Part shown: positions 1 through 2,640 of the stretch, one piece after another
Position numbering within the stretch: the first letter of the stretch is position 1
Layout of the letters: the number at the start of each line of letters is the position of its first letter
Source of the DNA: a virus
Taxonomy: Duplodnaviria > Heunggongvirae > Uroviricota > Caudoviricetes
Length of the DNA: 4,069 nucleotides
Virus record (IMG/VR): IMGVR_UViG_2563366958_000009
Direction: 5' to 3' (one strand)
The notes under the pieces: generated by a model
Told to the model about the DNA's origin: nothing
Database searches by the model: none
The model's input: only the letters and a program-made list of their open reading frames with translations
Position numbers and translations under genes: made by a program

Positions 1-2059
1 AGTAAAAATTTCTGGCGTGCTTAAAGATGGCACAGGAAAACCAGTACAGAACTGCACCATTGTGCTGAAGGCCAGACGGACCAGCAGCACGGTGGTGGTG
101 AACACGGTGGCCTCTGAAAATCCGGATGAAGCCGGGCGTTACAGCATGGATGTTGAGTATGGCCAGTACAGCGTCACCCTGCTGGTTGAAGGTTTTCCAC
201 CTTCACATGCCGGGACCATTACCGTCTATGAAGGTTCCAGACCAGGTACGCTGAATGATTTTCTCGGTGCCATGACGGAGGATGATGCCCGTCCGGAGGC
301 ACTGCGCCGTTTTGAGCTGATGGTGAATGAAGTGGCACGTCATGCCGGAGCGTCATCACAGAGTGCAGCGGCGGCAAAGAAATCCGAAACGGCAGCAGCC
401 TCATCGAAGAATGCAGCGAAAACCTCAGAAACGAATGCAGCTAACAGCGCACAAGCGGCAGCGGCCTCGCAGACTGCATCGGCAAACTCCGCGACAGCAG
501 CCAAAAAATCAGAAACCAACGCGAAAAATAGCGAGACAGCCACAAAGGCCAGCGAAAAAAACGCAAAATCCAGCCAGACGGCAGCGAAAACCAGTGAGAC
601 GAATGCCAAAGACAGTGAAGCCAACGCAAAGGTGAGCGAAACAGCGGCGGCGAACTCGGCGAAAGCATCGGCAGCAAGCCAGACGGCAGCAAAAGCAAGT
701 GAAGATGCTGCCAGAGAATACGCAAACCAGACAGCAGAGCCGTACAGATATGTTTTACAGCCGCTGCCGGATGTGTGGATACCCTTTAATGATTCGCTGG
801 ATATGATTACGGGCTATTCTCCGGGTTATAAAAAAGTGAAGATTGGTGATAATGTGGTTCAGGTTGCCAGTGATAAACAGGTTAATTTCAGTCGCGCATC
901 AACGGCAACATATATCAACAAATCTGGCGAACTGAAAACGGCGGAAATTAATGAGCCACGATTTGAGTGTGATGGCCTGCTTATTGAGGGGCAAAGAACG
1001 AACTTCTTCCCGAACAGTACAGACCCTTCGAAGTGGAATAAGTCAACTTCACTGGACGTTACAGAAACAGGCACAGATAGTTTCGGGTTTAATTATGGCC
1101 GGTTTGTCGTACAGGATTCGATTGTTGGTACAAGTAAAGCGCATACCATTATCGGACTGTATTCGAGTACCGGAGGGGTTGATACTTCAGGGGACGAAAA
1201 GCATGTAACTATATCCTGTCGGGTAAAAAGTGAAGTTGATAATATCGCCGTTCGTATTTTATTTGAACATTATGATGGGGAGGTAAGGACATCAATAGGA
1301 GCAGCAAACCTGAACCTTACCACCCGCATAATTAGCAAGACAGGTCAGACAAGCCGTGTTACAGCAAGGTCTGTTAAGGATGATGCAACTGGCTGGATAT
1401 TTTTTGAGGCTACATTAAAAGCAGATACAACAGAAAATACGGTTGGTGGTTTTGTCCAGTATTCTCCGGATACAGGGCAGATGGTTGCATCAGGGGATTA
1501 TCTCGATGTAACCACTCCACAGATTGAGGCTGGTACAGGCGCATCATCTTTTATTGTTACGGGGACGGCACCGGTAACGCGGGCAAGCGATATGGTTACA
1601 GTTCCGATTAAGAATAATCTTTATAATCTTCCTTTTACGGTTCTTTGTGAGGTACATAAGAACTGGTATAAAACGCCAAATGCAGCACCGCGTGTTTTTG
1701 ACACATACCGGCATCAGGCAGATGCGGGGATCGTAATGGGGTTTGGTTCATCAGGTGGGTACGACGGTTTTCCGTATTGTGATATAGGTGGTTCAAACCG
1801 ACGAATAAATGAAAATGCCGGGCTGGAAAAAATGCTTATTGGTATGCGGGTAAAGTCCGAACGGTCCACATGTGTAGTCAGTAACGGTAAGTTAAGCAGC
1901 GAAACTAAAACCAAATGGGAATATATCCGGAGTACAGCAACCATTCGCATTGGTGGACAAACTACAGCAGGATTACGCCATTTATTTGGGCATGTGAGGA
2001 ATTTTCGTCTCTGGCATAAAGAGCTAACAGATGCGCAGCTTGGGGAGGTTGTGGAGTGA
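1..2059 (+). CDS. stf: Side tail fibre protein, lambda Stf-like N-terminus with LamG/ConA-like C-terminal domain; 5'-partial (start codon a few bases upstream of the window)
   Basis: Open frame runs from position 2 (codons gta aaa att tct ggc gtg = VKISGV) to TGA at 2057-2059. The translation VKISGVLKDGTGKPVQNCTI...NTVASENPDEAGRYSMDVEYGQYSV...GFPPSHAGTITVYE...GTLNDFLGAMTEDDARPEALRR matches the N-terminus of phage lambda Stf as I recall it. An Ala/Ser/Thr/Lys/Glu-rich repetitive shaft follows. The C-terminus (...GLRHLFGHVRNFRLWHKELTDAQLGEVVE) resembles the terminal motif of laminin-G/ConA-like lectin domains. Confidence 0.9.
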   Translation, partial: VKISGVLKDGTGKPVQNCTIVLKARRTSSTVVVNTVASENPDEAGRYSMDVEYGQYSVTLLVEGFPPSHAGTITVYEGSRPGTLNDFLGAMTEDDARPEALRRFELMVNEVARHAGASSQSAAAAKKSETAAASSKNAAKTSETNAANSAQAAAASQTASANSATAAKKSETNAKNSETATKASEKNAKSSQTAAKTSETNAKDSEANAKVSETAAANSAKASAASQTAAKASEDAAREYANQTAEPYRYVLQPLPDVWIPFNDSLDMITGYSPGYKKVKIGDNVVQVASDKQVNFSRASTATYINKSGELKTAEINEPRFECDGLLIEGQRTNFFPNSTDPSKWNKSTSLDVTETGTDSFGFNYGRFVVQDSIVGTSKAHTIIGLYSSTGGVDTSGDEKHVTISCRVKSEVDNIAVRILFEHYDGEVRTSIGAANLNLTTRIISKTGQTSRVTARSVKDDATGWIFFEATLKADTTENTVGGFVQYSPDTGQMVASGDYLDVTTPQIEAGTGASSFIVTGTAPVTRASDMVTVPIKNNLYNLPFTVLCEVHKNWYKTPNAAPRVFDTYRHQADAGIVMGFGSSGGYDGFPYCDIGGSNRRINENAGLEKMLIGMRVKSERSTCVVSNGKLSSETKTKWEYIRSTATIRIGGQTTAGLRHLFGHVRNFRLWHKELTDAQLGEVVE
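353..720 (+). repeat. In-frame imperfect tandem repeats in stf encoding an A/S/T/K/E-rich low-complexity shaft (recurring K-S/T-SETNA-like units)
   Basis: Protein segment SSQSAAAAKKSETAAASSKNAAKTSETNAANSAQAAAASQTASANSATAAKKSETNAKNSETATKASEKNAKSSQTAAKTSETNAKDSEANAKVSETAAANSAKASAASQTAAKASEDAARE, with repeated DNA words such as aaatccgaaacggcagc, aaaatcagaaaccaacgc and aaaaccagtgagacgaatgc. A comparable low-complexity tract exists in lambda Stf. Confidence 0.6.
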
Positions 2060-2334
2060 GAGATTTCACGTTGCGTTTCAGTGATAAAGCAGATTTCAGG
2101 GCATTTCTCAGGAAACTTAACTGGGAAGAGGACGAAGAGCTGCAGAATGCCGTTCTGGTTGATGAGATTGGTTTTACGTTCAGTGAGTCAGGTGTTTCTG
2201 CTGACGGGGAGCCTGAATACACGCGAGACGAAGGGTACTTTGTTAATATTCGTCTTCTTGACGATGGCTTTGATGAATCCGTGTTCCGTGAGTGGGTGGT
2301 TACACCAGAGCGCCCGCTCAGGGAGTGGTTTTAA
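2056..2334 (+). CDS. Hypothetical small acidic protein (92 aa), translationally coupled to stf; function unknown, not a recognisable Tfa
   Basis: GTG start at 2056-2058 overlaps the stf stop TGA at 2057-2059 (GTGA). Strong Shine-Dalgarno GGGGAGG at 2042-2048, 7 nt upstream of the GTG. The ORF ends with TAA at 2332-2334. The protein is strongly acidic by my hand count (about 22 D/E against 11 K/R) with no hydrophobic segment. Confidence 0.7.
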   Translation: MRDFTLRFSDKADFRAFLRKLNWEEDEELQNAVLVDEIGFTFSESGVSADGEPEYTRDEGYFVNIRLLDDGFDESVFREWVVTPERPLREWF

Positions 2335-2343
2335 GGGGAGCAG

Positions 2344-2640
2344 ATGGATATCACGCCGATACTTCATGCAATTTGTGCTGTGGCGGTACAGGGGCTGGTT
2401 GGGTGCATTACCGGTGACTGGGCTTATGGTGCAGCCATTGCCTGTACGTTTTTTGTTGCCCGCGAATATACCCAGGCAGAATATCGCTGGATTAAGCGTT
2501 TTGGTGATGGTCACCGACATAAGATGCCGTGGTGGGGCGGTTTTGATCCGCACGCGTGGGATGTGGCAAGCCTGATGGATTTTGTGGTGCCGGTGGTGGC
2601 CTGTGCGGGATTGTATGGCTGTATGCTGATTTTTAGCTGA
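2344..2640 (+). CDS. Hypothetical small Cys-rich integral membrane protein (98 aa), probably three transmembrane segments
   Basis: ATG at 2344 preceded by AAGGGGAG at 2333-2340, 9 nt after the upstream stop, so it is likely co-transcribed with stf and the 92-aa ORF. Hydrophobic stretches ITPILHAICAVAVQGLVGCITG, WAYGAAIACTFFVA and VASLMDFVVPVVACAGLYGCMLIF flank a charged loop (REYTQAEYRWIKRFGDGHRHKMPWWGG). Stop TGA at 2638-2640. Confidence 0.7.
   Translation: MDITPILHAICAVAVQGLVGCITGDWAYGAAIACTFFVAREYTQAEYRWIKRFGDGHRHKMPWWGGFDPHAWDVASLMDFVVPVVACAGLYGCMLIFS

Follow-up and report, generated by a model that had tools for sequence, protein, structure and literature searches.

A probable fibre accessory gene and a separate membrane-protein gene downstream of a phage-21-type side tail fibre gene in an Escherichia coli prophage

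A 4,069-bp stretch of viral DNA (IMG/VR record IMGVR_UViG_2563366958_000009), here called the window, is the right end of an Escherichia coli lambdoid prophage. Downstream of its side tail fibre gene lie two small open reading frames (ORFs), encoding an acidic protein of 92 amino acids (aa), ORF92, and a membrane protein of 98 aa, ORF98. An initial annotation, made from the sequence alone, had treated the pair as a single cassette in the slot normally held by the fibre assembly gene tfa, with defence among its candidate roles. Our analysis points to two independent units: ORF92 as a fibre accessory of the phage 21 type, and ORF98 as a separate membrane protein of receptor-binding modules. We put the probability of this reading, both parts taken jointly, at about 0.7. 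It draws on the gene anatomy, on where the two genes occur together and how they vary apart, on purifying selection and on co-transcription in relatives.

ORF92 as the partner of one fibre type

The fibre gene and the two ORFs are laid out as follows, in agreement with the coordinates, the GTGA overlap, the GGAGG site, the 9-nt gap and the acidic and membrane characters of the two proteins as first annotated.

1 to 2059, + strand: side tail fibre gene of the phage-21 type (PF08400, phrog_1419, phrog_5939, NF048003, CE10 RefSeq coding sequence)
2044 to 2048, + strand: Shine-Dalgarno sequence GGAGG of ORF92, within the end of the fibre gene (read from the sequence)
2056 to 2334, + strand: ORF92, small acidic soluble protein of phrog_1361 (GTG start, GTGA overlap with the fibre stop)
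2335 to 2343, + strand: 9-nt spacer with the Shine-Dalgarno sequence GGGGAG (2335 to 2340) of ORF98 (read from the sequence)
2344 to 2640, + strand: ORF98, small three-helix membrane protein of phrog_1443 (ATG start, PHROG match, AlphaFold2 model)
2647 to 2666, strand unassigned: G+C-rich, terminator-like hairpin (GGGGAGC-loop-GCTCCCC) with A-run and T-run flanks

The 5' end of the fibre gene is cut by the window; the annotated CE10 coding sequence begins 5 nt before window base 1. The encoded 680-aa fibre has an N-terminal prophage tail-fibre domain (PF08400, 3.8e-63, aa 2 to 124), which an Ala/Ser-rich shaft links to a C-terminal tip of ~430 aa (window ~765 to 2056) with a galectin/LamG-like jelly-roll. 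It matches phrog_1419 over its full length and phrog_5939 on aa 255 to 679. A further match, on aa 322 to 523 (window ~980 to 1585; E = 8e-20), is to the NCBIfam domain NF048003, whose name derives from the head spike fibre of the Rhodobacter gene transfer agent, and links coliphage side fibres to the head spikes of such agents. The tip shares 42 to 61% identity with lateral fibres of T1-like, T5-like, Dhillonvirus, Nonagvirus and rV5-like phages. Its last ~35 residues, IRIGGQT..G.RHLFGH[IV]RNFR[IV]WHK.LTD.Q, form a LamG-like strand motif kept in all homologous loci that we opened, and in the homologous fibre Gp22 of IrisVonRoten the C-terminus has been described as galectin-like and as projecting from the end of the fibre (PMC11990801). 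No Pfam match to the intramolecular chaperone domain Peptidase_S74 (PF13884) was found on the fibre, which in this respect differs from T5 pb1 and the K1F endosialidase with their C-terminal S74 domains, and no tfa gene follows it.

The ORF92 start, GTG at 2056, overlaps the fibre stop (TGA, 2057 to 2059), with the GGAGG site 7 nt upstream. A tblastn search located ORF92 in 187 phage genomes on deposit, always next to a tail fibre gene or overlapping it. Virulent carriers belong to Drexlerviridae, Markadamsvirinae, Dhillonvirus, Queuovirinae and Vequintavirinae; among the many strictly virulent ones are the T1-like phages orkinos, KarlJaspers and tonn, the T5-like phages IrisVonRoten, EC100 and fp01, KarlBarth (Dhillonvirus), JenP1 (Nonagvirus) and pangalan (rV5-like). 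At all 11 loci with an intact fibre gene, the start of ORF92 overlaps the fibre stop (ATGA or GTGA) and the C-terminal 430 to 520 aa of the upstream fibre are homologous to the window fibre up to the final residue; a purine-rich site precedes the overlapping start in all homologous loci. In the reverse test, the last 200 fibre residues turned up in 205 phage records, whose breakdown by taxon matches that of ORF92; the association of tip and ORF92 is therefore close to 1:1. Phage 21 itself shows an identical layout of fibre, 92-aa protein and 97-aa protein.

Short forms of the locus, without a distal fibre subunit (phage 21, Lambda_2E9 and the window), retain an intact ORF92 under purifying selection, with a ratio of nonsynonymous to synonymous substitution rates (dN/dS) of ~0.3 among short-form prophages; its role must therefore concern the proximal fibre. 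A function in lysogeny or defence is ruled out by the occurrence of ORF92 in virulent phages. Judged from these genomic contexts, ORF92 is the regular partner of the phage-21 fibre type, as it is in phage 21, and not foreign cargo in the tfa slot as first proposed. New here, from genome comparison, is that phrog_1361 is linked almost 1:1 to a single type of fibre tip in six groups of phages.

The ORF92 protein has an isoelectric point (pI) of 4.25, with 23 Asp and Glu residues (25%) against 11 Lys and Arg, and no Cys. Its AlphaFold2 model (mean predicted local distance difference test score, pLDDT, 83) has a beta-alpha-alpha-beta-beta fold, and its sequence matches phrog_1361 over residues 1 to 92 of the 92-position profile (E = 2.5e-39). 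Neither Pfam (E <= 1, PF02413 included), NCBIfam nor PADLOC (E <= 1) gave a significant match, no structural similarity to solved Tfa proteins such as that of Mu was found, and Foldseek against BFVD returned uncharacterised phage proteins only. Profile searches with the small proteins against PDB sequences gave nothing under E = 0.79. The BASEL and DT57C papers do not discuss the ORF92 homologue, and literature searches by accession or context phrase found no paper. The initial statement that neither small protein resembles Tfa or a named family thus stands for Pfam and NCBIfam, but both belong to existing PHROG families, phrog_1361 and phrog_1443, annotated as "unknown function". With these matches, homologues in the hundreds for each, and dN/dS values of ~0.3 and ~0.2, ORF92 and ORF98 are real genes and not chance ORFs.

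ORF98 as a separate membrane-protein family

ORF98 starts with ATG at 2344, 9 nt past the ORF92 stop, and encodes a hydrophobic protein (grand average of hydropathy 0.52) matching phrog_1443 over residues 1 to 91 of 97 (E = 4e-44), with a dN/dS of 0.20 that indicates purifying selection. About three transmembrane helices had been predicted, and the AlphaFold2 model (pLDDT 93.6) indeed has three, at residues 4 to 23, 26 to 53 and 74 to 97. By the count of Lys and Arg residues the conserved loop is cytoplasmic; the phage 21 record cites TMHMM with two transmembrane domains and both termini inside. The conserved core consists of H8, R40-E41, Q44, E46, R58, P62-W63, W72, D79 and P83, of which H8, R40, E41, Q44, E46, R58, W72, D79 and P83 are invariant across the family, a polar set spread over the three helices. 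The cysteines that had drawn attention are present, five of them in the window protein, but they are a lineage-local feature and not a family trait: among 155 full-length family members no Cys column is at least 75% conserved, and among close relatives only C87 is conserved. An exhaustive profile search yielded 449 clusters at 50% identity; every one consists of stand-alone proteins, 66 to 146 aa long, with no informative fusion.

Searches of ORF98 against Pfam, NCBIfam and PADLOC (E <= 1) gave no significant match, the sole Pfam match, PhoR at E = 0.19, lying below threshold. Neither the GtrA-type family PF04138 nor any holin family was matched in Pfam, and Imm, SieA/B, Sim, HK97 gp15, Cor and Llp showed no sequence or profile match. 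A holin or lysis-accessory function, considered since a lysis cassette lies nearby in two podoviruses, was rejected on the lambdoid and P2-like contexts, which have no lysis genes nearby. A CPBP or site-2 protease-like motif was also considered, but was dropped as its spacing does not fit.

Homologues of ORF98 occur in 72 phage records against 187 for ORF92, and only 32 match both in DNA sequence across 80% or more of the region. About 150 phage genomes, strictly virulent phages among them, have ORF92 without ORF98. Conversely, ORF98 occurs without ORF92 directly after the P22-like tailspike gene of Gally, after an epsilon15-like fibre gene (phiv142-3), after tfa of the P2-like Halomonas phage phiHAP-1, which it overlaps by 4 nt, and after tailspike or fibre genes in five metagenomic contexts; intact copies are also found in Aeromonas jumbo phages. 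Even among the best 80 related IMG/VR loci, all of them E. coli prophages, the arrangement varies: of 79 loci, 42 have 9 or 12 nt between ORF92 and ORF98, and in 37 a distal fibre gene stands between them. The variation of ORF98 does not follow that of ORF92 (Spearman 0.20, not significant), nor does its divergence correlate with that of the fibre tip, and ORF98 is only 80% identical between loci whose fibres are 99.5% identical.

Two virulent K1 phages that are unrelated to each other, one a siphovirus and the other an N4-like Gamaleyavirus, have an identical, frame-broken ORF98 remnant of 51 aa, 4 nt past the endosialidase gene. The whole tailspike module has therefore moved between morphotypes, and ORF98 thus moves along with receptor-binding modules and degenerates where it is dispensable. 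ORF98 is accordingly a member of a separate family of ~95-aa, three-helix proteins encoded at the 3' end of receptor-binding modules, mostly in temperate phages. New in this respect is the view of phrog_1443 as what, from its genomic contexts, appears to be an independently mobile membrane protein tied to such modules. On one metagenomic contig with no obvious phage genes, a divergent homologue (47% identity; 288-nt span, 6001 to 6288) divergently adjoins Poly_export and Capsule_synth genes.

In the window, a promoter and terminator consensus scan found nothing between ORF92 and ORF98, and the hairpin 3' of ORF98. This hairpin has a 7-bp G+C stem and begins 6 nt past the ORF98 stop; it was scored formally on the minus strand and is probably bidirectional, closing the fibre-ORF92-ORF98 unit. 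In CE10 a second terminator-like hairpin, with a 13-bp stem, lies just 5' of the fibre gene, between it and lom, so that the three genes are bracketed by two hairpins (upstream in CE10, downstream in the window). Fibre gene, ORF92 and ORF98 probably form one transcript in the window.

Published RNA sequencing of three LF82 prophages carrying homologues, Perceval, Tritos and Gally (PMC9928086, S1 Table), allows the expression of these genes to be compared. In macrophages, Perceval shows log2 fold changes of 4.85 for the fibre gene, 3.73 for the ORF92 homologue and 3.0 for the ORF98 homologue, with no rise in lom (PMC9928086). In Tritos the proximal fibre gene (5.37), the distal fibre gene (6.21) and the ORF92 homologue (7.85) are all strongly induced and J rises modestly; ORF98 (0.21, not significant) and the tail assembly gene stay flat (PMC9928086). 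Our consensus scan places a terminator-like hairpin between the Tritos distal fibre gene and ORF98. In Gally, which lacks ORF92, the tailspike gene goes from ~4 to ~8 and ORF98 from ~4 to ~8.5 in log2 units, with terminase, portal and injection genes flat (PMC9928086); there, the same kind of scan found both a terminator-like hairpin and a weak promoter-like site in the interval separating the two genes. Across the LF82 prophages, fibre and tailspike modules are up 8- to 200-fold in macrophages, with tail assembly, lom, terminase and portal genes near background (PMC9928086), which implies that receptor-binding genes are transcribed in lysogens independently of lytic induction.

These data bear directly on the idea of a moron or defence cassette in which ORF92 would neutralise or regulate ORF98, as a toxin-antitoxin, abortive-infection or exclusion pair. 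Regions downstream of tail fibre genes are known cargo hotspots, and the two genes do stand next to each other, with a 9-nt spacer in the window and adjacency in 42 of the 79 related loci. Yet each is widely found without the other, they shuffle independently, a further gene separates them in 37 of the 79 loci, and ORF92 is tied to the fibre tip and present in virulent phages. Regulation differs as well, with the Tritos hairpin between the genes and ORF92 alone induced together with the fibre. PADLOC and Pfam were negative for abortive-infection functions. The co-occurrence data contradict a cassette, and we regard it as highly improbable. Still more remote is a DNA-mimic, anti-restriction function of ORF92 of the Ocr or ArdA kind. 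The pI and the 25% acidic residues would suit such a protein, but no such family is matched, the gene is a late one coupled to the tail fibre in every phage group and not an early one, and the model is compact alpha/beta without an elongated DNA-like surface. The suggestion of a new fibre chaperone or accessory pair fared better: it fits ORF92, through the link to the fibre tip, but not the pair.

Possible roles of the two proteins

We infer that ORF92, translated by coupling to the fibre gene, would act in the cytoplasm on the C-terminal end of the fibre, most likely as a trans-acting assembly or trimer-registration factor that replaces Tfa or an intramolecular chaperone. It may afterwards remain bound within the joint where a distal fibre subunit docks; the window prophage is a short form lacking that subunit. 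The gene position, the translational coupling, the small acidic soluble protein and the lack of another chaperone argue for an assembly factor. Like Tfa, gpG and gpU (Caudo_TAP, PF02413) of lambda, P2 and Mu, ORF92 is encoded directly 3' of the fibre gene and co-expressed with it, is small, acidic and predicted to be cytoplasmic, and is a specific partner of the C-terminal fibre module, with which it moves between unrelated phages; unlike them, it has no PF02413 or NCBIfam match. For ORF98 we would guess a role at the cell envelope, in superinfection exclusion or receptor display. Exclusion and surface-conversion genes (cor, llp, gtr/oac, Z/fun) classically follow receptor-binding genes. An exclusion-like role seems the most likely one, with low confidence, given the position of ORF98 after such genes and its bias towards temperate phages. 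With cor (T1/phi80/N15), llp (T5), gtrABC/oac (P22/Sf6), Z/fun (P2) and gp15 (HK97) it shares the character of a small envelope protein encoded directly after a fibre or tailspike module in mostly temperate phages, and in phiHAP-1 it occupies the very position of Z/fun in P2, between tfa and the sheath gene. It differs from them in having no sequence match, in being a three-helix integral membrane protein and not a lipoprotein, and in being silent in lysogens grown in lysogeny broth (LB).

Several observations weigh against this picture. Among the best 80 IMG/VR loci ORF98 always lies within the same module as ORF92, so that the two may be functionally linked within lambdoid phages. Jelly-roll tip domains often fold unaided. 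The allele classes of ORF92 correspond more closely to the short or long form found downstream than to the final 200 aa of the fibre (rho 0.46), which favours a joint or adaptor over a tip-specific chaperone. For ORF98, no known exclusion or defence family was matched in Pfam or PADLOC, and the window holds no promoter-like site for it. In LB-grown LF82 lysogens the three homologues show background expression only, and the published list of morons includes none of them (PMC9928086). The LB background, the missing promoter in the window and the copies in jumbo phages sit uneasily with an exclusion protein expressed by lysogens.

An alternative for ORF92, which we consider possible though doubtful, is that it is a virion joint or adaptor linking the proximal fibre to distal subunits and not a chaperone, so that in short forms such as the window it would be a cap or a leftover. 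In long forms, the gene after ORF92 encodes an interchangeable distal fibre subunit: T-shaped Gp24 in IrisVonRoten, an endosialidase-like protein in JenP1 and Tritos, and proteins of 225 to 234 aa elsewhere. The order of proximal fibre, ORF92 and distal fibre recurs in T5-like, T1-like, Nonagvirus, Dhillonvirus and lambdoid phages, and the otherwise unrelated proteins right after ORF92 homologues share the N-terminal peptide M[VA]TxT[VI]IPxDI[TK]xLK (seven loci), probably a common docking segment of exchangeable distal subunits. The allele classes that follow the presence and type of the downstream subunit agree with a joint, as does the GenBank label "tail fiber protein" on the IrisVonRoten ORF92 homologue; in KarlJaspers, the label "putative lateral tail fiber chaperone" sits on the gene after the homologue. 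A small gene between proximal and distal fibre genes, in an order mirroring the fibre structure, also recalls the hinge proteins gp35 and gp36 of T4, but homology to these was not detected, and ORF92 persists where no distal fibre gene is present. That ORF92 is intact and under selection in phage 21, Lambda_2E9 and the window, all without a distal subunit, speaks against a joint; moreover, the published AlphaFold-Multimer account docks Gp24 on Gp22 with no mention of the small protein, and we found no virion proteomics. The Tfa proteins of Mu and P2 can remain attached to the fibre, so that assembly factor and joint are compatible, and we place the assembly factor slightly ahead.

For ORF98, a function in the lytic cycle tied to the receptor-binding module, and not in the lysogen, is a serious rival, though not our expectation; a late membrane protein might limit re-adsorption of progeny or modulate envelope glycan synthesis or lysis. 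The tight or overlapping starts of ORF98 with upstream late genes in many contexts would fit, as would the lack of a promoter in the window, the background level in LB lysogens, and intact copies in Aeromonas jumbo phages and in a phage encoding ribonucleotide reductase. Harder to reconcile with it are the decay to a remnant in the two virulent K1 phages and the ~150 phages, virulent ones included, whose fibre-ORF92 module has no ORF98. In Gally, too, ORF98 is preceded by a terminator-like hairpin as well as a weak promoter-like site, and rises more than the tailspike gene in macrophages, with other late genes flat.

A bolder proposal goes beyond our preferred reading of a fibre accessory and a separate membrane gene, and we hold its parts, taken together, only tentatively. 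ORF92 would found a new class of proteins for fibre assembly or for the fibre joint, with no relation to Tfa, gp38, gp57A or intramolecular chaperones. A fibre architecture common to lambdoid, T1-like, T5-like, Dhillonvirus, Nonagvirus and rV5-like coliphages would require it, and it would serve as a socket for swappable distal subunits that have the docking peptide in common. ORF98 would represent a new membrane family of receptor-binding modules, with a conserved His/Arg-Glu/Gln/Glu/Asp intramembrane site, that alters envelope glycan display or phage entry.

Neighbouring genes and implications

Three further features lie beyond the hairpin.

2759 to 3091, - strand: YkgJ-type CxxCxxCC zinc/iron cluster protein (PF03692, E = 6e-12)
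3277 to 3729 (RefSeq start ~3288), + strand: VapA/VapB-family protein (Pfam R_equi_Vir, E = 5e-34)
~3870 to 4069: IS1 end, among close genomes only in NZ_OZ547117

The YkgJ-type gene converges on the fibre module, and the hairpin at 2647 to 2666 is common to both. VapA/VapB is a virulence-protein family of Rhodococcus equi, here found in E. coli, and its gene sits in an island of prophage cargo with 30 to 37% G+C. The CE10 prophage, which adjoins the ompW/trp region, is 99.9% identical to the window across bases 1 to 3870, NZ_OZ547117 is 100% identical to it, and the remaining close genomes align to bases 1 to 3870 only.

In many coliphages that serve as models and in phage therapy, the O-antigen host range is set by side and lateral tail fibres. 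Should assembly or extension of this fibre type depend on ORF92, designs that swap fibres must include ORF92 together with the tip. The conserved docking peptide suggests a natural site at which new receptor-binding domains could be plugged in. ORF98 is a recurrent, unstudied small membrane protein beside receptor-binding genes, and its position at a classic site of exclusion and surface-conversion genes makes it a cheap candidate for phenotype screens. For annotation, "fibre accessory plus a separate membrane gene" replaces "possible defence cassette" at this locus.

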